From the NCBI GenBank assembly GCA_964016885.1, contig OZ024756.1, forward strand, positions 2,356,001 through 2,420,000: DNA of 64,000 nt. Reading direction: 5' to 3'. Shown piece after piece: positions 48,301-64,000 of the stretch. The notes beneath the pieces are model-generated. The model was not told the DNA's origin, did no database searches, and saw only the letters and a program-made list of their open reading frames with translations. Both the position numbers and the translations under genes were made by a program. Each line of letters starts with the position of its first letter. Within the stretch, counting starts at the first letter, position 1. The stretch is from Eledone cirrhosa (Eukaryota).

Positions 48301-48444
48301 ATGTGTTGTGTTCTTGAGCAATACACTTCATCTCACGTTGCTGGACTGGGTTATGTGTTGTGATCTTGAGCAAAACACTTCATCACACGTTGCTGGACTG
48401 GGTTATGTGTTGTGTTCTTGAGCAAAACACTTCATCTCACGTTG

Positions 48445-48670
48445 CTGGACTGGGTTATGTGTTCTGTTCTTGAGCAATACACTTCATTTCCCGTTGCACC
48501 AGTATACTCAGCTGAAGATGAGTATCAACAATAGTTAGGGTTTTAACCCTGCAATGGCCTGGCGTCCTGTCCAGGGGGGGGGGGAGTATTGTGCACCCGG
48601 TCACTTAACACCACAGAAACAGAGATAAGCATCGGTGTGATCATCCTCCAGACTCAGGATAGACCTTGGA
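48445..48670 (+). mobile_element. CORE-type SINE, central domain plus 3' tail; continuous with the last satellite monomer
   Basis: GTTCTTGAGCAATACACTTCATTTCCCGTTGCACCAGTATACTCAGCTGAAGATGAGTA aligns by eye to the MIR-type CORE pattern (CCTTGGGCAAGTCACTTAAC...CAGTTTCCTCATCTGTAAAATGGG). It is followed by a SINE-like tail, AACCCTGCAATGGCCTGGCGTCCTGTCCAGGGGG...ACAGAAACAGAGATAAGC. Confidence 0.7.
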
Positions 48671-48894
48671 CAGTCACCGGGAGATATGTCCTCGATTGTT
48701 GTCCTTCACAAGATCCGGCATGTGCATCTGGAATGATTCTTAATTCAATAATTTTTCTAGTTTGGGACACCTGAGATCAATATTTACGAAGTCCTTTATT
48801 ATATTTGAAGGTAAACACACCTGTATGCTCCCCTCTCTGAAAGGAAAACTTTTTTGTTACTATAATGTAATGCATTCAAAATACTTTCCGCCAT

Positions 48895-49910
48895 TTAGTT
48901 ACGTCCCTTTATCTTCTTTAATCAAATCTTCCCAGAGTCGTTCAAATAAAGTACCAGTAACACACTGGTGTCAATTTAATCGGCTTTACTCTAACCTTAA
49001 ATTGTTGGCTTTATGCCTAAATCAGAAACCGTTATTATAATTCAATGCATTCAAAATTCTTCGCGGCATCAAGTTACGGCCCTTTATCTTCTGAGTTCGA
49101 ATACTTCCACAGTCAACTTTGGCGTTCATCCTTCCGGAGTTGATAAAATAAAGTACCAGTGGAGTATTGGTGGGAATTTAACTGCTCCCCACATCATTCT
49201 CCTAAATTGCTGGCCTTGTGCCTGGATTAATAAAACATAATTTCAGACATTTAGAGATTGGTGTATCAATAGAATCGTTGGATAATCAGCGAGGATTTGT
49301 TTAGGGTCAATACATTCTGTGTTGAAACCTCACCGAGGTTAACTTCGCCTTTCATTCTTCCGGGATAGATGAAATAAAATACCAGTAAAATACTGGGCCG
49401 ATATAAACTACCTTCTCCTCACTCTATATTGCTGTCCTTCTGCCTAAATTACAAACCAATATTATTTAGACGCTGCAGCACAGAGTTACGGCCCTTTATG
49501 ATCTAAGTTGAAATCCCGCCGAGGTTAACTTTGCCTTTTATCCTTAAGGGGTCGATAAAATAAAGTACCAGTCACGCACTGGTTTCGATCTAATTGACTT
49601 TCCCCTCCCCCAAAATCACTGGCCTTGTGCCTATATAAGAAACCAATATTATTTAGACGAATCAGGTGGTGGATTGGCAGTATCGATAGAAGGTTGGACG
49701 CCATGCTTTGACGCATAGAGTTACGGCCCTTTGCGGTCTGAGTTCAAATCCCGTCGAGGTTAACTTTGCCTTTCATCCTTACAGGGTCGATAAAATAAAC
49801 TACCAGTAATACACTGGGATAATTGCCTTTCATCCTTACAGGGTCGATAAAATAAAGTACCAGTAATACACTAGGATAATTGGTGGCCTTGTTCCAAAAG
49901 TAGAAACAAT
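48895..49910 (+). mobile_element. Tandem cluster of ~5 diverged copies of a second, tRNA-derived-type SINE
   Basis: Recurrent module TTACGGCCCTTT..CTGAGTTCAAATCCCG (B-box-like) GAGGTTAACTTTGCCTTTCATCCTT..GGGTCGATAAAATAAAGTACCAGT..CACTGG...TGGCCTTGTGCCTA..GAAACCAATATT at ~48895, ~49070, ~49250, ~49466 and ~49651. Confidence 0.8.
49766..49879 (+). repeat. 57-bp tandem duplication of the SINE central domain
   Basis: TTGCCTTTCATCCTTACAGGGTCGATAAAATAAASTACCAGTAATACACTRGGATAA occurs twice (49766 and 49823) with 2 mismatches. Confidence 0.92.
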
Positions 49911-49970
49911 CCTTTAGACGAATAAGACGAATGTTTTCTATTTTGTTTTCTATATATTTTTTTTTTGTAG

Positions 49971-49994
49971 AGAAGTTTAGTTTTATTTCTCCAG
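49971..49994 (+). other. Candidate 24-nt microexon (or recursive splice site)
   Basis: A long pyrimidine tract ends TTTTTTTTTTGTAG at 49970. It is followed by the 24 nt AGAAGTTTAGTTTTATTTCTCCAG and a consensus donor GTGAGT at 49995. The length is a multiple of 3 and two frames are open. Confidence 0.4.
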
Positions 49995-50392
49995 GTGAGT
50001 TGTTACAAATAATAATTATTAATCCAATCAAGTTTTCGCAGGTGACATTCAATTACCTACCAGTCAGATCTGAGAAAGTCAAGTTTCTCAAACGAAAGTT
50101 CATGTATTTTTTTTTTGGGGGGGGGGGGGGAGGAAATACAATTCTGTAGTATACACTGCAATCTCAATGATATTGTGGTTTTAGAAAATGAATACGTTTC
50201 TGTCAGTATTGAGTACCATGTTAGTTACATTGGTAGAGATAAGATCTAATGTAACAAGCTTACTTGTGGGTTGCTTCATTACATTATTAGTTGGTGCATA
50301 AAAACAGCTTGTGGGTAGGTCTGAGGTGTTAATTAGCCCCAATATTCATTCGGTTATAAAATACTCTGATGCCATTTTATTCCCTGTAGTGA

Positions 50393-50404
50393 ATATATAC
50401 ACAT

Positions 50405-50477
<73 letters not shown>

Positions 50478-50498
50478 GTATATATATGTATATATATG

Positions 50499-50561
<63 letters not shown>

Positions 50562-50623
50562 AGATGTATAAATATATATATATGTGTGTGTGTGTGTATG
50601 TATATGTATTTGTAGATGTATAA

Positions 50624-50656
<33 letters not shown>

Positions 50657-50730
50657 TACATGTGTGTGCGTATGTATATGTATAAATATATATATGTATA
50701 TATATACATGTGTGTGTGTATGTATATGTA

Positions 50731-50817
<87 letters not shown>
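50393..50817. repeat. Compound (TA)n/(TG)n microsatellite
   Basis: Directly visible dinucleotide tracts. Confidence 0.95.
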
Positions 50818-50818
<1 letters not shown>

Positions 50819-50966
50819 GGAATCAGTAAGACCCCGACGGCTGAGCTCAAGCCGTTTCGACGGCTAATTCTGTCCATTACTGATTCCTATTACACACTCT
50901 ACTACCCTAAGTATTGAGTACTTTGGTGCGCTATGGTCCACCTGGTTCCTTACCACATTTCCTTCG

Positions 50967-50968
<2 letters not shown>
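50816..50968. mobile_element. Penelope-like pLTR-type relic in (TA)n; same family as 57884-58120
   Basis: 14-bp inverted repeat ATAGGAATCAGTAA/TTACTGATTCCTAT. The minus strand has the hammerhead 3' half GAAA-CGGCTTGAGCTCAGCCG-TC. The tail CTCTACTACCCTAAGTATTGAGTACT..GGTGCG..ATGGTCCA.CTGGTTCCTTACCACA is shared with ~58049-58109. Confidence 0.65.
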
Positions 50969-51040
<72 letters not shown>

Positions 51041-51409
51041 GAGTGTGTGTGTACGTATACAAATAGCTGCTCCTTTTTGCAATAGGCATACCTGCTTTAA
51101 TTTAATTAAGTACATCAGATGTATATATATTACAGATTAACATATATTTCTTTCACATTCAGATTGGATTAACAGATTTCTATAGGTTGGAGGCTTGTGT
51201 GGTTTGTTTTAGCGTTCGACAGCCGTTTAAAGTACGTATCTAGTAGCGAGTTTTCACACCGTTTCATGTTACACCAAGTTCCAGTGTAAATGTTATATAA
51301 GTATTAGTTTTAATACTCTTATCAATAGATTGATATGAATATAGTTTCATAACTGCATTAGATATTCGGTCATGGATATTGAGAATAAAGCCAAGTACAC
51401 TTGCAAAAG

Positions 51410-51482
<73 letters not shown>

Positions 51483-51483
<1 letters not shown>

Positions 51484-51668
51484 TTAATATAGATGAGATT
51501 CTACAGGACTAGAACTGTTTCATTCATTAGAAATCAGATTCCTGATGATTTCTAATGAATGAAACAGTTCTAGTCCTGTAGAATCTCATCTATATTAAAG
51601 CTGTTATACTCTGCTATGTATTGAGTACCTTACCTACTGTGGTTACCTCCGATTTAACCCGGAATAAC

Positions 51669-51670
<2 letters not shown>
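51483..51670 (+). mobile_element. Inverted-repeat element (54-bp perfect arms, 9-nt loop, ~70-bp tail) in (TA)n; Penelope-like pLTR derivative
   Basis: Arms 51483-51536 and 51546-51599 are exact reverse complements. (TA)n flanks both sides. The element contains a hammerhead. Confidence 0.75.
51536..51586 (+). ncRNA. Minimal type I hammerhead ribozyme
   Basis: Stem I AGAUUC/GAAUCU; CUGAUGA at 51542-51548; stem II U-UUC(UAAU)GAA-U; GAAA at 51561; stem III ACAG(UUCUAGUC)CUGU; cleavage triplet GUA at 51578-51580. Confidence 0.75.
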
Positions 51671-53555
<1,885 letters not shown>

Positions 53556-53559
53556 ATGC

Positions 53560-54198
53560 ATTAATATATACTGATACACATATATGCATTAATATATACT
53601 TATACACATATATGCATTAATACATACTTATACCCATATATCCATTAATATATACTTATACACATATATGCACTAATACATACTTATAAACATATATGCA
53701 TTAATATATACTTATATACATATATGCATTAATATATACTTATATACATATATGCATTAATACATACTTATACACATATATCCATTAATATATACTTATA
53801 CACATATATGCACTAATACATACTTATAAACATATATGCATTAATATATACTTATATACATATATGCATTAATATATACTTATATACATATATGCATTAA
53901 TATATACTTCTATACATATATGCATTAATATATACTTATATACATATATGCATTAATATATACTTATTCACATATATGCATTAATATATACTTATATACA
54001 TATATGCATTAATATATACTTATACACATATATGCATTAATATATACTTATATACATATATGCATTAATATATACTTATACACATTAATGCATTAATATA
54101 TACTTATATACATATATGCATTAATATATACTTATACACATATATGCATTAATATATACTTATATACATATATGCATTAATATATACTTATATACATA
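53560..54198. repeat. 28-bp AT-rich minisatellite (~23 copies)
   Basis: Unit TATATGCATTAATATATACTTATAYACA. Confidence 0.92.
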
Positions 54199-54257
54199 CA
54201 AATCAGATATACATATATAAATGCCGACCAAGTATTCATTCATATATACATGTTACC

Positions 54258-54262
54258 TACAC

Positions 54263-54355
<93 letters not shown>
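54258..54355. repeat. (CA)n microsatellite
   Basis: Directly visible. Confidence 0.95.
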
Positions 54356-54358
<3 letters not shown>

Positions 54359-54653
54359 TTATGGGCTTGGAAAGGCCCATTACTGTCGAAATAGCCAACA
54401 TTTCTCTCACAAACACTCACAAACATACATACATAGCCATATAATTTATGTCTGGTCAGGTTATTTACTCGCCAGTTGAAAAGCAGGCCCGTATAGACTA
54501 TAATATAACCGTATGGGTAATACAGGGGTATGCTTCGAAACCTAAGGTAGTGATCAACTGTGTCGAGCAGGCATCGATAATATTTTAACTCTGTTAGTAA
54601 CATAAGTAGCTTATTTCCCTTCATCCCTTCTGTAGAAACCTATGACACTACTA

Positions 54654-54692
<39 letters not shown>

Positions 54693-54959
54693 TCTCTCTC
54701 TATATATAAATATATAGATAAAAGCGGGGAAAAAAGCGGTAAAAATTCCCTTGGCGAGGAAAAGAGATGCAATAGTCGGCTATGGGGAAAGATGTATTGC
54801 TGGTACGTCTGAGAAACATATTAAACAGCTAAGCTAAGATTTAACCCTGTAGCTAGAAGTGCTAGCATACAGAATGACTTACAAATCTTTGGGAAATATG
54901 AAATTTGAAAATATTGTCGCCACACTTCAAATAACTATAATGTATTCTGATTCAGGCAC

Positions 54960-55042
54960 CTTACTGATACTTTATTTATCGACATCGTAAGGATGAAAGT
55001 CAAAGCTAACATTGGCGGGATTTGAACTCAGAATGTAAAGCG
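54960..55042 (-). mobile_element. Diverged fragment of the same SINE as 48895-49910, reverse orientation
   Basis: The reverse complement reads CTGAGTTCAAATCCCGCCAATGTTAGCTTTGACTTTCATCCTTACGATGTCGATAAATAAAGTATCAGTAA. Confidence 0.75.
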
Positions 55043-55094
<52 letters not shown>

Positions 55095-55135
55095 TTAATA
55101 ATAATAATAATAATAATGATAATAATAATAATAAT
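55043..55135. repeat. (CTA)n-(TAA)n trinucleotide microsatellite
   Basis: Directly visible; abuts the LINE fragment. Confidence 0.95.
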
Positions 55136-55656
55136 GTGCGGGAATTCTGAAATGGAATGTTGCTGAACAAAAAGAAATGGATAGGAAGACTAGGAAGCTA
55201 ATGACTATCTACAACATGTTCCACAAGAGGAGTGATGCTGATAGACTCTACTTAAAGAGATCTGAAGGTAGAAGAGGTCTTATCAGCATAGAGGACTGTG
55301 CTCAGATGGAGAAACACAACCTGCGCAAATATGTGGCTGACAGTAGGGAGCCAATGCTCAAAATTGTACTGAATTGTACAAAATTGTACTGAAAGACAAT
55401 AGACCAGGGGATGTCCAAGGAGGAATTAAAAGGGAGGAAGAGCAACCTTCATGAAAAATCCCTTCATAGCACCTTCTTTAAGAAAACAGAATTTAGAAAT
55501 CCACAGACATGTAACTGGTTAAAAAGAGGATACCTTAAAAAAGCTACAGAAAGAATGCTAATGGCTGCGCAAGAGCAGGTCCTCAGAACGAAGTGGGTGA
55601 AACACCATATTGACAAGGAGGAGGCTAGCTCACTGTGTAGAATCTGTCAAGTTTGA
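55136..55656 (+). pseudogene. Decayed fragment of an RLE-type non-LTR retrotransposon (R4/Dong-like): RT thumb to start of the zinc knuckle
   Basis: Peptides GILKW..E..EMDRKTRKLMT...H.RSD.DRLYLKRSEGRRGL.SIED, K.LHS.FF, WLKRGYLKKATE.MLMAAQEQ.LRT and IDK....LCRIC match the post-RT motif pattern of R4-clade elements. An in-frame stop lies at a local AATTGTAC duplication (~55361-55392). The RT core and the endonuclease are absent. Confidence 0.8.
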
Positions 55657-55875
55657 CAGTTGATAATTGCAAACTTGACTATCATCACAGAATTGGAACC
55701 TGAAGATTGCGAAAGCATGAAAGTACTTGTTCAATTAACATTTAATATTCTACCATTCTATTTCATTATAATATCATTATAATTATAAAGGATTGTAAAT
55801 AAAACCAGTATATCAGACAAACTTGGAATTCCTTTTATTAATATAATCTTCTATACACAATCATACACACCCGTG

Positions 55876-55877
<2 letters not shown>

Positions 55878-55952
<75 letters not shown>
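55878..55952. repeat. (CT)n microsatellite
   Basis: Directly visible. Confidence 0.95.
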
Positions 55953-55956
<4 letters not shown>

Positions 55957-56030
55957 TTGAGTGCTACTTACCTGATATTTGCATTGCTTTATTCTGCTAC
56001 AATAAAACTCACCTCCTACATTATATATAT

Positions 56031-56703
56031 ATATCAAGATAAGCAGAACAAGTAAAATTCAACTAATTTTTCAAAATAAATCAAAATTAATATACAATTA
56101 AAATTAATCAAAATTAAAAAATATAATATATTTACCTATTCAAATGGCCCTAACTGTACAGTTTCACGGTGCAAAACATTAAATATCACGAGGATATTAA
56201 TGGAAAAGCAACGATCATCAGAGAAGCATTTTCCTGTCCTAGGGTTAAAAACCCCAGGAACGACAAAATATATGACCTCACTCCAACTAATACAGGTCTA
56301 AAAGGTCGTGAAAGTGACCCGTAAATACATTGGTGTATAGTGAAGGCGGGAAATCGTAGACTCGCCGTCTATAGCTCGCCACTAAAAAAAGATTTTTAGT
56401 AACTAAATATAACGACAAATTTGTATCTCTACATACTGGAGATTATTGAAAAAGGTTAATATATATCTGAGGGTACAATGTACCCCCGGAAATATATAGT
56501 GTGTCTATGATTTAAGGTGGTTCTATGGTAATAATTTGATATACCAGAACATAATATCAAGATAAGCAGAACAAGTAAAATTCAACTAATTTTTCAAAAT
56601 AAATCAAAATTAATATACAATTAAAATTAATCAAAATTAAAAAAATATAATATAAATATTTACCTATTCAAATGGCCCTAACTGTACAGTTTCACGGTGC
56701 AAA
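56031..56703 (-). mobile_element. Retrozyme-like non-autonomous element: ~525-bp non-coding unit flanked by ~145-bp direct repeats overlapping a hammerhead
   Basis: Direct repeats at 56031-56175 and 56554-56703 differ by small indels. Each repeat carries the hammerhead 3' half and cleavage site. The interior is rich in hairpins, has no ORF in the track, and is flanked by short (TA)n. Confidence 0.75.
56142..56231 (-). ncRNA. Type I hammerhead ribozyme with long stem II and palindromic stem III
   Basis: Minus strand: AAAUGCUUCU-CUGAUGA-UCGUUGC...CAUUAAUAUC(CUCGU)GAUAUUUAAUG...GCACCGU-GAAA-CUGUACAG-UU-AGGGCCAUUU. Stem I pairs at 9 of 10 positions. Stem III ACUGUACAGU is self-complementary. Cleavage triplet GUU. 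Confidence 0.8.
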
Positions 56704-56748
56704 TATATATAATGTAGTTTATAAACAGTTTATAGGACTGGAGTATAA

Positions 56749-57072
56749 ATAATATAAAATCAAAAGATGGTTAAAAGAGTTCCATGTATTTTATTATGCG
56801 CATTTCAAAAACAAATATCATAATGGGATGATATTTGCGTTCTCATCAGATAAAATAGGGACATGATATGAAGCTTAAAAAACACTTGCGAGCAGTGAAG
56901 TGTTAAATCAACATATGTTGATTTGACACTTCACTGCTCGCAAGTGTTTTTTAAGCTTCATATCATGTCCCTATTTTATCTGATGAGAACGCAAATATCA
57001 TCCCATTATGATATTTGTTTTTGAAATGCGCATAATAAAATACATGGAACTCTTATAACCATCTTTTGATTT

Positions 57073-57080
<8 letters not shown>
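56749..57080. mobile_element. 332-bp near-perfect palindrome (166-bp arms, no spacer) with a hammerhead on each strand
   Basis: Centre AACAT|ATGTT at 56914/56915. Two arm mismatches seen by eye. The right end abuts (TA)n. Confidence 0.85.
56972..57042 (+). ncRNA. Type I hammerhead ribozyme (mirror copy on the minus strand at 56787-56857)
   Basis: Stem I UAUUUUAU/AUAAAAUA; CUGAUGA at 56980-56986; stem II GAACGCAAAUAUCAU(CCCAUU)AUGAUAUUUGUUUUU; GAAA at 57023; palindromic stem III AUGCGCAU; cleavage triplet AUA at 57032-57034. Confidence 0.82.
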
Positions 57081-57112
<32 letters not shown>

Positions 57113-57582
57113 TTTGTGTGTGTATGTGTGTATTTATATATGCATACGTACACACATTTTTAACCCCAGTATTGAGTGCAAAATCTATACTGTATATATA
57201 TATATATATAAGGTATAGCTATTATGTATACACATAATAAATATATATATATATCCACACACACACGTGCATCCACCCTCACAAACACATTACACACACA
57301 CACACACACCCTTTGTCAAGGCATTCTGCTAGGAGAAGGCAACTCAGGAAACTGGGATAACTCCGATATAAAACCTGCGGCTCAGTAGTTACCGATGATG
57401 TTGATCTTTTCTCTTATTTCGGGTTATAGCTAGTGTCGCTCAGAGAGTGGGATTGGCTCAGTGCACAGTCTTTCCTCACTTTAAAACATATCTTCACGCG
57501 CAGGCATTGCACGGTGGCATTAATTAATAATGATTAATAATGTTATATCGTGCAATGGCCATACTCGATAACGAAGGAGCAA

Positions 57583-57623
<41 letters not shown>

Positions 57624-57631
<8 letters not shown>

Positions 57632-57835
57632 TAAAATAACAGATTAAAGTTTAAGCAAAGAATCGCTGCTTTCACCCTTAACGGGATCTTCAGAAGATCC
57701 CGTTAAGGGTGAAAGCAGCGATTCTTTACTTAAACTTTAATCTGTTATTTCAATAAATATTTGCTCTAAGGTTCTTATATATTTGATATATATTTATCCT
57801 TATCGAGCCCTCTTTGGATTTTAGTCCTCAAATTT
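57624..57835. mobile_element. Palindromic element (68-bp arms, 1-nt loop, ~75-bp tail) centred on a degenerate hammerhead core
   Basis: Arms span 57624-57691 and 57693-57760 with 2 mismatches. The minus strand reads CUGAAGA-U-CCC(GUUAA)GGG-U-GAAA-GCAGCGA. Stem I and stem III are not convincing. Flanked by (TA)n and (TTA)n. Confidence 0.7.
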
Positions 57836-57847
57836 TATTATTATTAC

Positions 57848-57883
<36 letters not shown>

Positions 57884-57884
<1 letters not shown>

Positions 57885-58118
57885 TAGGAAAAAGTATGAC
57901 CCCGACGGCAGAGCTCAAGCCGTTTCGACTGCTATTTCTGGACTAGCTATTTAATAGACGCCTATTTCTGGACGGCTTTTTAGTCCAGAAATAGCCGTCG
58001 AAACGGCTTGAGCTCTGCCGTCCGGATCATACTTTTTCCTATTTCCCTCTCTACTACCCTAAGTATTGAGTACTCTGGTGCGTTATGGTCCATCTGGTTC
58101 CTTACCACAATTCCTTTG

Positions 58119-58120
<2 letters not shown>
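57884..58120 (+). mobile_element. Inverted-repeat element (62-bp arms, 35-nt spacer, ~78-bp tail) with the 3' half of a hammerhead
   Basis: Arms at 57884-57945 and 57981-58042. Plus strand: a stem II-like hairpin GACG.CTATTTCTGGAC/GTCCAGAAATAGCCGTC, then GAAA at 58000, CGGC...GCCG and GUC at 58020-58022. CUGAUGA is absent. Homologous to 50816-50968. Confidence 0.72.
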
Positions 58121-58148
<28 letters not shown>

Positions 58149-58157
<9 letters not shown>

Positions 58158-58485
58158 TACAAATAATAATAAAATAGATATTCTTTTGATCAATTACATT
58201 TTATTATACATATTTCGAATGTACAACAGTACGTCCTCATCAGACAAAATATAATGATACATGACATACCCTGAGATGTTAAATGGTTAAGATCTGATGA
58301 GGACGTACTGTTGTACATCCGAAATATGTATAATAAATTATAATTAATCAAAAGAACATTTATTTTATTAATATTTGTATTTTAATATTAATAACTCTGG
58401 AAAATAATTTTTTTTAGCCGTAGAGTGCTTCCAATCTAATGTAAAACTCATTCTTTGATATACTCATTGAATCTTGTTTAACTCG

Positions 58486-58488
<3 letters not shown>
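58149..58488. mobile_element. Inverted-repeat element (96-bp diverged arms, 48-nt spacer, ~100-bp tail) with hammerhead cores on both strands
   Basis: Arms at 58149-58244 and 58293-58388; (TA)n on both sides. Confidence 0.78.
58197..58251 (-). ncRNA. Type I hammerhead ribozyme (a plus-strand copy at ~58292-58334 has the core but almost no stem I)
   Basis: Minus strand: UAUUUUGU-CUGAUGA-GGACGUAC(UGUU)GUACAUUC-GAAA-UAUGUA-UA-AUAAAAUG. Stem I is 8 bp with wobbles. Stem III AUAUGUAU is quasi-palindromic. Confidence 0.78.
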
Positions 58489-58550
<62 letters not shown>

Positions 58551-58964
58551 ATATATATCTAGGTGGAAATATGCTGCACTCTTACCTCTTACCTGTCGCA
58601 GTAGTTGAGACAGTCGAATAAAGTGGTTGAACCACGTCAGTGTGTCTATGTCTGTCTGTGTGTATATATGTGTGTGTGTGTGTATTAGAATGTCTGAGTG
58701 TGTGTCAGTATGTCTGTGTGTGTGTCTTTATGGTTGTTAGTAAGTATGTGTACGTCTGTGTGTGTGTGTGTTAGTATGTCTTTGTGTGTGTTAGTATGTG
58801 TGTGTGTGTTAGTATGTCTCTGTGTGTGTTAGTATGTCTGTGTGTGTGTTTTTGTGTGTGTTAGTATATCTGTGCGTGTATGTCGGAGCGTGTGTAAGTC
58901 TGTGTTTATGAATGTGTTCGACCAACTTTACACACTGTATCTGTGTGTATGTATGTGTGAGTAT

Positions 58965-61370
58965 ATGTATGTCTTTGTGAGTGTATGTATGTGTCTCAGT
59001 GTATGTGTGAGTGTGTATGTCTTTGTCAGTGTATGTATGTGTTTCAGTGTGTTTGTGTGTATGTCTTTGTCAGTGTATGTATGTGTCTCAGTGTATGTGT
59101 GTATGTCTTTGTCAGTGTATGTATGTGTCTCAGTGTATGTGTGTATGTCTTTGCCAGTGTATGTATGTGTCTCAGTGTATGTGTGTATGTCTTTGTCAGT
59201 GTATGTATGTGTCTCAGTGTATGTGTGAGTGTGTATGTCTTTGTCAGTGTATGTATGTGTCTCAGTGTATGTGTGAGTGTGTATGTCTTTGACAGTGTAT
59301 GTATGTGTCTCAGTGTATGTGTGTGTGTGTATGTCTTTGTCAGTGTATGTATGTGTCTCAGTGTATGTGTGAGTGTGTATGTCTTTGTCAGTGTATGTAT
59401 GTGTCTCAGTGTATGTGTGAGTGTGTATGTCTTTGTCAGTGTATGTATGTGTGTCAGTGTATGTGTCTCAGTGTATGTGTGAGTGTGTATGTCTTTGTCA
59501 GTGTATGTATGTGTCACAGTGTATGTGTGAGTGTGTATGTCTTTGTCAGTGTATGTATGTGTCTCAGTGTATGTGTGAGTGTGTATGTCTTTGTCAGTGT
59601 ATGTATGTGCCTCAGTGTATGTGTGAGTGTGTATGTCTTTGTCAGTGTATGTATGTGTCTCAGTGTATGTGTGTGTGTGTATGTCTTTCTCAGTGTATGT
59701 ATGTGTCTCAGTGTATGTGTGAGTGTGTGTGTCTTTGTCAGTGTATGTATGTGTCTCAGTGTATGTGTGTGTGTGTATGTCTTTGTCAGTGTATGTATGT
59801 GTCTCAGTGTATGTGTGAGTGTATGTATGTCTTTGTCAGTGTATGTATGTGACTCAGTGTATGTGTGTGTGTGTATGTCTTTGTCAGTGTATGTATGTGT
59901 CTCAGTGTATGTGTGTGTGCGTATGTCTTTGTCAGTGTATGTATGTGTCTCAGTGTATGTGTGTGTGTGTATGTCTTTGTCAGTGTATGTATGTGTCTCA
60001 GTGTATGTGTGAGTGTGTATGTCTTTGTCAGTGTATGTATGTGTCTCAGTGTATGTGTGAGTGTGTATGTCTTTGTCAGTGTATGTATGTGTCTCAGTGT
60101 ATGTGTGTGTGCGTATGTCTTTGTCAGTGTATGTATGTGTCTCAGTGTATGTGTGTGTGTGTATGTCTTTGTCAGTGTATGTATGTGTCTCAGTGTATGT
60201 GTGAGTGTGTATGTCTTTGTCAGTGTATGTAAGTGTCCCAGTGTATGTGTGAGTGTGTATGTCTTTGTCAGTGTATGTATATGTCCCAGTGTATGTGTGA
60301 GTGTGTATGTCTTTGTCAGTGTACGTATGTGTCTCAGTGTATGTGTGTGTGTCTTTGTCAGTGTATGTATGTGTCTCAGTGTATGTGTGTGTGTGTATGT
60401 CTTTGTCAGTGTATGTATGTGTCTCAGTGTATGTGTGAGTGTGTATGTCTTTGTCAGTGTATGTATGTGTCTCAGTGTATGTGTGAGTGTGTATGTCTTT
60501 GTCAGTGTATGTATGTGTCTCAGTGTATGTGTGAGTGTGTATGTCTTTGTCAGTGTATGTAAGTGTCCCAGTGTATGTGTGAGTGTGTATGTCTTTGTCA
60601 GCGTATGTATGTGTCTCAGTGTATGTGTGAGTGTGTATGTCTTTGTCAGTGTATGTATGTGTATTAGTGTATGTGTGAGTGTGTATGTCTTTGTCAGTCT
60701 ATGTATGTGTCCTAGTGTATGTGTGAGTGTGTATGTCTTTGTCAGTGTATGTATGTGTCCCAGTGTATGTGTGAGTGTGTATGTCTTTGTCAGTGTATGT
60801 ATGTGTATTAGTGTATGTGTGAGTGTGTATGTCTTTGTCAGTCTATGTATGTGTCCTAGTGTATGTGTGAGTGTGTATGTCTTTGTCAGTGTATGTATGT
60901 GTCTCAGTGTATGTGTGAGTGTGTATGTCTTTGTCAGTGTACGTATGTGTCTCAGTGTATGTGTGTGTGTGTGTGTGTCTTTGTCAGTGTATGTATGTGT
61001 CTCAGTATATGTGTGAGTGTGTATGTCTTTGTCAGTGTATGTATGTGTATTAGTGTATGTGTGTGTGTGTATGTCTTTGTCAGTGTATGTATGTGTCTCA
61101 GTGTATGTGTGTGTGTGTATGTCTTTGTCAGTGAATGTATGTGTCTCAGTGTATGTGTGAGTGTGTATGTCTTTGTCAGTGTATGTATGTGTCCCAGTGT
61201 ATGTGTGAGTGTGTATGTCTTTGTCAGTGTATGTATGTGTATTAGTGTATGTGTGTGTGTGTATGTCTTTGTCAGTGTATGTATGTGTCTCAGTGTATGT
61301 GTGTGTGTGTATGTCTTTGTCAGTGAATGTATGTGTCTCAGTGTATGTGTGAGTGTGTGTATGTTTATGT
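58965..61370. repeat. 48-bp GT-rich minisatellite (~50 copies; 42-bp variants near the left end)
   Basis: Unit GTATGTCTTTGTCAGTGTATGTATGTGTCTCAGTGTATGTGTGAGTGT; 16-aa periodicity in the ORF track. Confidence 0.93.
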
Positions 61371-61429
61371 CAGTGTGTGTGTGTGTCTGTGTGTGTGTGT
61401 GTGTGTGTATGTGTCTGTCTGAGTCTGTT

Positions 61430-62390
61430 TGGCTAACAATAAATAAATGTATGTCTGTGTTAATCTAACAATACAGTGTATGTTTATATGTGTATGTCTG
61501 TGTGTGTAAGTGTATGTGTATGTCTGTGTGTATATGTGTATGTCTGTATGTGTATGTGTATGTGTATGCGTCATGTACGTGTGTGTGTTTGTTAGACTAA
61601 CAATAGATATATGTGTGTGTTATTTTAACAATACCAGAGTTGTGTGTATGTGTGTGTGTTAAAGTATCTATAGTAGAAATACAGTAGTAATATATGTGTT
61701 TGTGTGTGTGTACACGTGAGTCTGTGTGTGTGTCTGTGTGTACGTGTGAGTCTGTGTGTGTTTGGCTAACGAGACTAGAGACAGTAGTAGTGTGTGTGTG
61801 TCTGAATGTGTGTGTGTGTGTCTGAATGTGTGTGCGTCTGAGTGTATGTGTGTGACTGTGTGTGTGATGGACTAACAAGACTAGACAGTATTAGTATGTG
61901 TGTGTGTTAGTGTGTATGAGTGTGTGTGTCTTAGTGTGTGTGTTTGGTTAACATGAGTAGACAGTATTAGTATGTGAGTGTGTTTGTGTCAGTGTATGTG
62001 TGTGTGTGTTAGCGTGTATGTGTGTGTGTTACGCTAACATGACTAGACAGTATTAGTATGTGGCTGTGTGTGTGTCTGAGTGTGTGTGTGTGTGCGTCTG
62101 AGTGTGTTTGTGTGTGTGTGTATGTGTTAGTGTGTATGAGTGTGTGTGTGTGTTAGTGTGTATGAATGTGTGTGTGTGTTAGGCTAACATGACTAGACAG
62201 TATTAGTATGTGTGTGTGTCTGAGTGTGTGTGTTATTGTGTGTAACTAACAAGACATGAGATAGTATTAGTATGTGTCTGAGTGTGTGTGTGTATTAGTA
62301 TGTGTGTGTGTGAGTGTGTGAGTGTGTGTGTGTATGTGTGTGTTAGTGTGTGTGTTTGACTAACAAGACTAGAGACAGTATTTTTATGTG
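61430..62390. repeat. Degenerate GT-rich repeat with recurring anchor CTAACAWGACTAGACAGTATTAGTATG
   Basis: Anchor seen at ~61766, 61872, 61948, 62034, 62184, 62246 and 62360, separated by variable (TG)n. Confidence 0.75.
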
Positions 62391-62419
62391 TGTGTAAGAG
62401 AGAGAGAGTGTGTACGTGT

Positions 62420-63860
62420 GTGTGCATGAGTGTGTGTGTATGTTCATGAGTGTGTGTGTATGTTCATGAGTGTGTGTGTATGTTCATGAGTGTGTGTGTA
62501 TGTGTGTGTGCATGAGTGTATGTGTGTGCATGAGTGTGTGTGTATGTTCGTGAGTGTGTGTGTATGTGCATGAGTGTGTGTGTATGTGTGTGTGCATGAG
62601 TGTGTGTGTATGTTCATGAGTGTGTGTGTATGTGCATGAGTGTGTGTGTATGTGCATGAGTGAGTGTGTGTGTATGTTCATGAGTGTGTGTATGTGCATG
62701 AGTGTGTGTGTATGTGCATGAGTGAGTGTGTGTGTGCATGAGTGAGTGTGTGTGTATGTTCATGAGTGTGTGTGTATGTGCATGAGTGTGTGTGTATATG
62801 CATGAGTGTGTGTGTATGTGCATGAGTGAGTGTGTGTGTATGTTCATGAGTGTGTGTGTATGTGCATGAGTGTGTGTGTATGTGCATGAGTGAGTGTGTG
62901 TGTATGTGCATGAGTGTGTGTGTGTGTATGTTCATGAGTGTGTGTGTATGTGCATGAGTGTGTGTGTATATGCATGAGTGTGTGTGTGTGTGCATGAGTG
63001 AGTGTGTGTGTATGTTCATGAGTGTGTGTGTATGTGCATGAGTGTGTGTGTATGTGCATGAGTGAGTGTGTGTGTATGTGCATGAGTGAGTGTGTGTGTG
63101 CATGAGTGAGTGTGTGTGTATGTTCATGAGTGTGTGTGTATGTGCATGAGTGTGTGTGTATATGCATGAGTGTGTGTGTATGTGCATGAGTGAGTGTGTG
63201 TGTATGTTCATGAGTGTGTGTGTATGTGCATGAGTGTGTGTGTATGTGCATGAGTGAGTGTGTGTGTATGTTCATGAGTGTGTGTATGTGCATGAGTGTG
63301 TGTGTATGTGCATGAGTGAGTGTGTGTGTATGTGCATGAGTGAGTGTGTGTGTGCATGAGTGAGTGTGTGTGTATGTTCATGAGTGTGTGTGTATGTGCA
63401 TGAGTGTGTGTGTATGTGCATGAGTGAGTGTGTGTGTATGTGCATGAGTGAGTGTGTGTGTGCATGAGTGAGTGTGTGTGTATGTGCATGAGTGTGTGTG
63501 TATGTGTGTGTACATGAGTGTGTGTGTATGTTCATGAGTGTGTGTGTATGTGCATGAGTGTGTGTGTATGTGCATGAGTGAGTGTGTGTGTATGTGCATG
63601 AGTGTGTGTGTATATGCATGAGTGAGTGTGTGTGTATGTGCATGAGTGTGTGTGTATGTGCATGAGTGTGTGTGTATGTGCATGAGTGTGTGTGTATGTG
63701 TGTGTGCATGAGTGTGTGTGTATGTTCATGAGTGTGTGTGTATGTGCATGAGTGTGTGTGTATGTGCATGAGTGAGTGTGTGTGTATGTGCATGAGTGTG
63801 TGTGTATATGCATGAGTGAGTGTGTGTGTATGTGCATGAGTGTGTGTGTATGTGCAAAGT
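62420..63860. repeat. 20/24-bp minisatellite CATGAGTG(AGTG)TGTGTGTATGTK
   Basis: Directly visible tandem units. Confidence 0.92.
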
Positions 63861-63907
63861 GAGTGTGTGTGTGTTGTCAAACACAACTAGAAGTATTATG
63901 AAACACG

Positions 63908-63956
63908 TGACACTAATATCCGGTGCTCCAGTCCACCCTGCTGGTCAATATTAAGT
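63908..63956 (+). mobile_element. Possible highly decayed CORE-SINE relic
   Basis: GACACTAATATCCGGTGCTCCAGTCCACCCTGCTGG resembles TACACTTCATTTCCCGTTGCACCAGTATACTCAGCTG at ~48478-48514. Confidence 0.3.
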
Positions 63957-64000
63957 TTTACATATAATTCAACGATCAAGTCACACACTGTACCACGCTG

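Follow-up and report, generated by a model that had tools for sequence, protein, structure and literature searches.

Insertions of Penelope-like elements (PLEs) with an inverted 5′-truncated copy, a tail of 30–40 bp at one end and (TA)n targets are described in PMC8557442, and palindromic head-to-head PLE junctions with a tail on one inverted pLTR in PMC3846280. According to PMC4209133, PLE terminal repeats carry hammerheads with a palindromic helix III and a requirement for dimerization, single minimal PLE hammerheads did not cleave, and dual hammerheads occur on opposite strands at distances of 100–700 bp. Hammerhead dimer cleavage was also the subject of work by Lunse et al., as reviewed in PMC6765202. 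In Penelope-13_HM both strands bear one and the same hammerhead, which is closed by a G-U pair (PMC8557442 supplement). For Poseidon, PMC11167929 reports a protein which cuts and extends both strands, two RT start sites which flank the tail and were used equally between the strands in the assay, and a protein-assisted hammerhead which was dispensable for insertion in vitro. The formation of the inverted repeats of PLEs was named an open question in PMC8557442.

The palindrome analysed here lies in a window of 64 kb (the whole stretch of DNA under study), and its arrangement is already published for PLE insertions. Self-BLAST (E = 8.7e-173) bore out what a first, sequence-only reading had claimed, namely a 332-bp palindrome with 166-bp arms, about two mismatches and no loop. 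The spacer is 0 nt, the centre falls between 56914 and 56915, and the arms differ at two of 166 bp (56904/56925 and 56774/57055), which corresponds to a divergence of 1.2% (95% CI 0.15–4.4%). A third mismatch (56748/57081) marks the limit of the palindrome, beyond which pairing is provided only by TA-type bases. Both arms read outward from the centre and are thus oriented head to head. The right end adjoins (TA)n, and at the left end 37 nt precede the TA run; because both ends are embedded in TA repeats, a target-site duplication is unreadable. Within the 37-nt extension, which we infer to be element-derived, CTCC starts at 56743, 8 nt beyond the stop position of the right arm. No other copy of the arm was found elsewhere in the window, and its three forward frames are all interrupted by stops.

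Based on the outward arms, the hammerhead near the short end, the TA flanks, the one-sided extension and the lack of an ORF, we consider the palindrome very probably to be a single PLE insertion, in which two 5′-truncated, hammerhead-bearing 3′ ends were joined head to head within (TA)n; we predict that its ribozyme motifs are inactive and simply carried along. The locus displays the features of a 5′-truncated inverted-pLTR PLE insertion, i.e. a hammerhead near the 3′ terminus, a palindromic head-to-head junction, a tail of 30–40 nt at one end and a (TA)n target. The PLE 3′-end origin, the one-sided tail and five similar neighbours (see below) go beyond the sequence-only reading. The tie to a PLE protein is indirect, because a coding remnant of RT or GIY-YIG was not found in the arm or nearby; 11 of the 131 listed stop-to-stop frames were scanned and gave no relevant Pfam match. 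An autonomous EN+ PLE was rejected, as no ORF with telomerase-like RT and GIY-YIG was found in the arm and its surroundings among the frames scanned. In the PMC8557442 supplement, the search for a named family produced no match for two motifs of the window and a single, unrelated match for the core motif. The bacterial and archaeal genomes and phages searched gave 0 matches. The features of the palindrome and of its neighbours are compiled in Table 1.

Table 1. Coordinates of the palindrome, its predicted ribozyme motifs, its borders and the neighbouring inverted structures (positions refer to the window).
Feature	Position	Strand	Remarks
Right arm, 5′-truncated 3′ end of a likely PLE	56915–57080	+	"short" end at ~57077 runs directly into (TA)n
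Left arm, second copy of that 3′ end	56749–56914	−	outward; 2 substitutions relative to the right arm
Spacerless head-to-head junction	56909–56920		centred on CAT|ATG
Putative PLE "tail", one-sided 37-nt extension	56712–56748	−	folds as a weak hairpin, −3.0 kcal/mol
(TA)n target microsatellite, short end	57073–57112		abuts the right arm
Short TA run, tail end	56704–56711		boundary in common with the adjoining direct-repeat element
Type I hammerhead motif	56972–57042	+	predicted cut after 57034
Identical type I hammerhead motif	56787–56857	−	core begins at 56849; cleavage predicted after 56795
Second copy of the 57884 family	50818–50967		77-nt one-sided extension
Inverted structure	51483–51669		54-bp identical arms, 9-nt spacer, 70-nt one-sided extension
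Inverted structure	57624–57785		1-nt spacer, ≥31-nt one-sided extension
Inverted structure	57884–58119		hammerhead 3′ halves only, 35-nt spacer, 78-nt one-sided extension
Inverted structure of a putatively related family	58149–58488		arms 58149–58244 and 58293–58388, 48-nt spacer, 104-nt one-sided extension

The same complete hammerhead had been claimed for each strand, and the type I core, the 8-bp stem I, the long stem II, the palindromic stem III and AUA were indeed recovered on both. On the plus strand, stem I is built of 56972–56979 and 57035–57042 (8 bp) and is followed by the core CTGATGA (56980–56986), by stem II (56987–57022; 15 positions with one C-U mismatch and a 6-nt loop), by GAA (57023–57025) and by stem III, an 8-nt palindrome at 57026–57033, with the AUA triplet and H17 at 57034. 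All core positions of a type I hammerhead (C3-A9, G12-A14, A15.1, U16.1 and H17) are present. Stem II contains G-U pairs, including the closing 10.1-11.1 pair, which is usually G-C. The motif on the minus strand (56857–56787) is identical, neither arm mismatch falling inside it; the cores on the two strands are 131 bp apart, and the predicted cut site is located ca. 44 nt from the short end. A hammerhead descriptor detected four motifs in 48500–58600, two of them when stem I was set to at least 6 bp, compared with none in each of 300 dinucleotide shuffles; this control was run at three thresholds and gave zero motifs each time. The hammerhead families of Rfam 15 produced nothing at the gathering score, and neither the 26 matches with E ≤ 10 in 55960–58480 nor the 150 matches listed out of 184 included a hammerhead. 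The miRNA and snoRNA matches of Rfam, all below their gathering scores, were dismissed as hairpin and microsatellite noise.

In the predicted hammerhead fold helices I and II form, and stem III is predicted to be unstable in the monomer (P about 0.001) and stable in the dimer. The canonical double hammerhead of two same-sense copies was calculated at −34.5 kcal/mol versus −24.2 kcal/mol for two monomers, i.e. ~10 kcal/mol below these and only 0.6 kcal/mol off the cofold minimum, with stem III as an 8-bp duplex between the copies. For sense plus antisense, cofolding gave −108.2 kcal/mol. Since the genomic copies are mutually antisense, no transcript would contain two sense motifs, so that the dimer cannot form, and since the arms point outward, the antisense copy would be transcribed first, whichever the direction of read-through. 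The full read-through RNA was predicted to form a hairpin (−267.8 kcal/mol) that leaves the pairs of hammerhead stem I with probabilities of 1e-66 to 7e-63; the earlier suggestion that double-stranded read-through RNA masks the ribozyme is thereby supported in silico. When the start site was shifted in steps of 15 nt, stem II reappeared only for transcripts from 56839 onward, the probability of stem I then ranging from 0 to 0.6. According to these models both ribozyme motifs would be silent passengers. The sequence-only reading had named non-cleavage of the isolated motif as a refutation, which we regard as mis-specified, as the predictions allow stem III only as a duplex between two copies; single minimal PLE hammerheads likewise remained uncleaved in PMC4209133.

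The palindrome is accompanied by five more inverted structures within 8 kb, which follow a common plan. Self-BLAST of 48401–64000 yielded five self-palindromes, and the sixth structure, related to one of these, was recognized by visual inspection. In all six (50.8–58.5 kb) a whole or truncated hammerhead reads away from the centre, and in all six one arm end is placed at most 3 nt from a TA run and the opposite end 31–104 nt away, the background being 2.9% of non-microsatellite positions within 5 nt of a TA run. In window order, the one-sided extensions comprise 77, 70, 37, at least 31, 78 and 104 nt, and CTC(C/T) starts 7, 7, 8, 7, 7 and 10 nt past the stop of the short arm. As this motif was picked post hoc, the control covered 1536 candidate motifs in 1500 random six-sets, of which three shared any common motif and none a motif with at least two fixed G/C positions; with one structure per family, 87 sets out of 1500 had some motif in common and 0 out of 1500 a G/C-rich motif. 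A GAGT(A/G)C partner is contained in four of the five other tails and is lacking in the 37-nt tail of the main palindrome. That the short end lies at a fixed distance from CTC(C/T) provides a modest mechanistic clue. No prior description of this offset was found in the literature searched, whose coverage was thin for older PLE papers and Repbase reports, and its claim to novelty is weak.

The individual neighbours differ in the state of their hammerheads. The structure at 51483 has a complete one on the plus strand (core 51542), the centre of that at 57624 falls within a CTGAAGA core (57693, minus strand), and that at 58149 carries cores at 58243 (minus) and 58294 (plus), its arms being 7.6% diverged. 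The copies at 50818 and 57884 agree in 91 of 101 nt on the tail side and share the position of the short end, and their junctions differ; palindromes therefore appear to be made anew with each insertion. In the junction spacer 57946–57980 a 12-nt direct copy of arm sequence was noticed, which we take to have the look of templated end-joining. At 51536–51547, 57691–57695 and 58290–58295 the arms are 5′-truncated in the hammerhead core or at most 2 nt from it, which suggests stalling of the RT at the ribozyme fold in these three neighbours; the main palindrome is an exception, as both of its arms pass through the hammerhead. Its nearest relative appears to be the structure at 58149–58388, a moderately supported assignment: shuffling gave z = 3.7 (0/500) against the left arm of that 58.2-kb structure and z = 2.4 (13/500) against the right one, in a test of 21 pairs with mononucleotide shuffles in which one other pair reached z = 3.8. 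The designation as a related family is only moderately secure because the common core inflates the z scores. A pattern search built from the four compared motifs is circular as evidence of kinship, and a MAFFT alignment of eight ends was left out as the cores were misaligned.

Arm divergence in four neighbours amounts to 0/54, 2/63, 3/58 and 7/92 (0–7.6%). The 1.2% of the main palindrome lies within this range, so that a recent insertion suffices as explanation. Of the earlier proposal that the insertion is young or homogenised by conversion, youth is plausible; arm-to-arm conversion is unneeded, because PLE integration would give near-identical arms at birth and those of one neighbour have since diverged to 7.6%. 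Assuming an octopus host and the scale of PMC13282606 (JC 0.09 = 25 My), the palindrome would be about 0.2–6 My old.

The window as a whole consists of eukaryotic repeat DNA, a 48.5-kb satellite being followed by microsatellites, SINE-like copies and a broken non-LTR ORF. Three quarters of it (1–48497) are occupied by a 52-bp satellite with about 934 copies and variant units of 128–180 bp. Decayed SINE-like copies, 76–97% alike, are found at 48850–49900 and 54961–55032 and may resemble octopus SINEs. At 55135–55656 (plus strand) a broken C-terminal fragment of a non-LTR retrotransposon ORF is situated beside (ACT)n/(TAA)n; a protein search retrieved 15 relatives at 46–62% identity, 10 of the 15 with Pfam PF00078. 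A solo minimal hammerhead (core 55700) belongs to the segment 55695–56020 on the plus strand, which ends in TA at ~56020 and whose putative tail hairpin seems to be split by a (TC)37 expansion at 55878–55952. Next to it, a 524-bp unit on the minus strand (56027–56703) has 148-bp direct repeats (148/148 aligned bases identical, 6 gap positions), a full hammerhead (core 56221, 10-nt palindromic stem III) and a 3′ half at 56693; it has the appearance of a PLE end in partial tandem or of a 1.3-mer in the manner of retrozymes. TTGAGT(A/G)C occurs at 50209, 50914, 51621, 55957, 57172 and 58066, mostly shortly upstream of a TA run, with six sites on the plus and none on the minus strand; a similar motif is located near published Hydra-clade ends (PMC8557442 supplement). 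Farther downstream, 58640–63874 is filled by GT-rich minisatellite arrays, which show a strong G skew and have periods of 48, 44, 64 and other lengths. A scan for tRNA genes in the window found none, and one for sigma-70 promoters found 6 versus 4.4 expected, which is irrelevant to a eukaryote.

Consistent with these data we propose the following scenario for the origin of the palindrome. A PLE protein with RT and GIY-YIG domains would cut the TA tract and prime cDNA synthesis from both DNA ends, one arm starting from the distal start site, thus including the tail, and the other from a proximal site 7–10 nt before CTC(C/T). Both cDNAs might terminate at a short self-complementary site 65 nt beyond the core of the hammerhead and become joined at this point, which would leave no spacer. 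The resulting locus would hold a dimer-dependent hammerhead, whose antisense copy comes first in read-through, so that the RNA would close up into a hairpin of 166 bp; the likely output of the locus would not exceed dsRNA on which editing or RNAi could act, without self-cleavage. The asymmetry in six of six structures speaks against this PLE reading insofar as it is not predicted by the equal use of start sites on both strands in the Poseidon assay.

The asymmetry is better accommodated by a second PLE route, to which we give a little less than half of the weight among such routes. Here, one cDNA would self-prime at the central micro-palindrome and copy itself, or an antisense RNA would serve as template instead of the cDNA, as proposed by Arkhipova 2013, and the endonuclease would then cut the hairpin 7–10 nt before CTC(C/T) and leave the tail on one side only. 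Such a fold-back accounts for the zero spacer, the near-identical arms and the strict 6/6 asymmetry, which has a chance of 1.6% if each end picked its site randomly; moreover, the tail is put down to EN-mediated resolution in PMC8557442 and junction palindromes are taken as self-priming in PMC3846280. Against it, both strands were extended in vitro (PMC11167929), and the spacers of 9, 35 and 48 nt in the neighbours, one with a 12-nt direct copy of the arm, fit end-joining of unequal cDNAs. Altogether, fold-back and two-ended priming explain the picture about equally well, the former being better on one-sidedness and worse on long or templated spacers.

Outside the PLE insertion routes, a non-autonomous palindromic mobile unit, MITE-like or in the form of a two-headed retroelement, which would keep its junction intact and use either end as a PLE priming site, is improbable. 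It would profit from the 3′ signals kept at both ends, pLTRs being reported as sufficient in cis (PMC3846280), and from the little diverged arms, but there is no second copy in 64 kb, and its RNA would be a perfect hairpin and hence a poor RT template. In addition, the ends are asymmetric and the only family seen twice, a neighbouring one, has differing junctions, which led us to reject a MITE, defined by symmetric ends and a fixed structure.

Slightly less probable still is a host-selected gene for a bidirectional self-cleaving or hairpin RNA, the symmetry of which would be kept by conversion. The intact cores, the position of both mismatches outside the motif and the G-U pairs of stem II common to the arms would agree with it. 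However, the motifs occupy 71 of 166 nt per arm, so that finding neither of the two mismatches inside is unremarkable (about 0.33), G-U closing pairs are known from published PLE motifs, the motif is predicted to be unable to fold in read-through RNA, and the surroundings are a repeat graveyard beside a 48-kb satellite. Two further candidates were rejected, a viroid-like two-polarity ribozyme RNA, as the two motifs lie in chromosomal DNA, are precisely reverse-complementary and block one another, and a non-LTR retrozyme, as the arrangement is inverted and a tandem copy with a same-sense hammerhead is absent. Spacerless palindromes are a typical signature of chimeras, but an assembly or library fold-back artefact is highly improbable here, since the arms differ at two sites and extend for 166 bp up to ends that are defined by the element and flanked by unrelated sequence, and since five neighbours follow the same plan with 0–7.6% arm divergence.

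As a probably dead insertion of a common retrotransposon class, the locus itself is of little weight, and its value lies in the footprint. A genome with thousands of such mini-palindromes could be used to tell two-ended priming from fold-back. We raise, as a bolder and rather doubtful generalization, that PLE integration obeys a strict rule, according to which every insertion has one tail-bearing end and one end fixed 7–10 nt before a CTC(C/T) hairpin common to unrelated families. Such insertions, at six per 8 kb, might in addition be a major built-in source of perfect dsRNA which traps its own ribozymes and feeds hyper-editing or siRNA silencing of the parents, notably in an octopus host. If the rule were true, the RT-start or endonuclease site could be mapped from genome sequence alone and the building of inverted repeats by PLEs would become testable. 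If transcribed, such elements would be ideally suited as substrates of ADAR or Dicer; heavy editing of Penelope repeats is reported for a lizard (PMC5625713).

Among the known systems, the inverted-pLTR EN+ PLEs (Penelope/Poseidon, Neptune, Hydra; PMC8557442, PMC3846280) share with the palindrome the truncated head-to-head copies, the palindromic junction, the 30–40 nt tail at one end, the (TA)n target and a type I hammerhead near the 3′ end. They differ in that here both copies are cut to 166 nt, so that no ORF remains, the junction is spacerless and no named consensus was matched in the PMC8557442 supplement. The Hydra-clade PLEs (Penelope-13_HM, Hydra-1_Crog, Hydra-2_Amil; PMC8557442) resemble it in the preference for (TA)n, a hammerhead within about 100 nt of the end and, as judged by eye, RCTCY ~40–50 nt after the cut. 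This motif follows the cut by 38–47 nt in three of six new Hydra-clade consensus ends and by 50 nt in the main palindrome; two of the remaining ends stop before that point and one differs. In contrast, stem III is an 8-nt palindrome starting A-U here and starts A-C in the Hydra rows, and stem II has 15 positions compared to 3–7 bp; the link to this clade is a resemblance of 3′ ends seen by eye with a differing stem III. With the dimer-dependent minimal and PLE hammerheads (PMC4209133; PMC6765202) the putative ribozyme motif has in common the conserved core, the palindromic helix III, the enlarged helix II and the occurrence in opposite-strand pairs; it is distinguished by a longer helix II with an internal mismatch and by the lack of an additional base between 9 and 10.1. 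Metazoan non-LTR retrozymes (PMC7229834; bioRxiv 10.64898/2026.07.22.740005) are likewise non-coding, equipped with a type I hammerhead and PLE-related, but form head-to-tail tandems with same-sense ribozymes able to dimerize, whereas the pair described here is inverted and unable to do so. Finally, the hyper-edited palindromic Harbinger repeats of Xenopus tropicalis (PMC5625713) are also single elements of ~200–330 bp which self-fold to near-perfect dsRNA; they are DNA transposons with a palindromic consensus, whereas in the present case the palindrome is apparently made afresh with each insertion.
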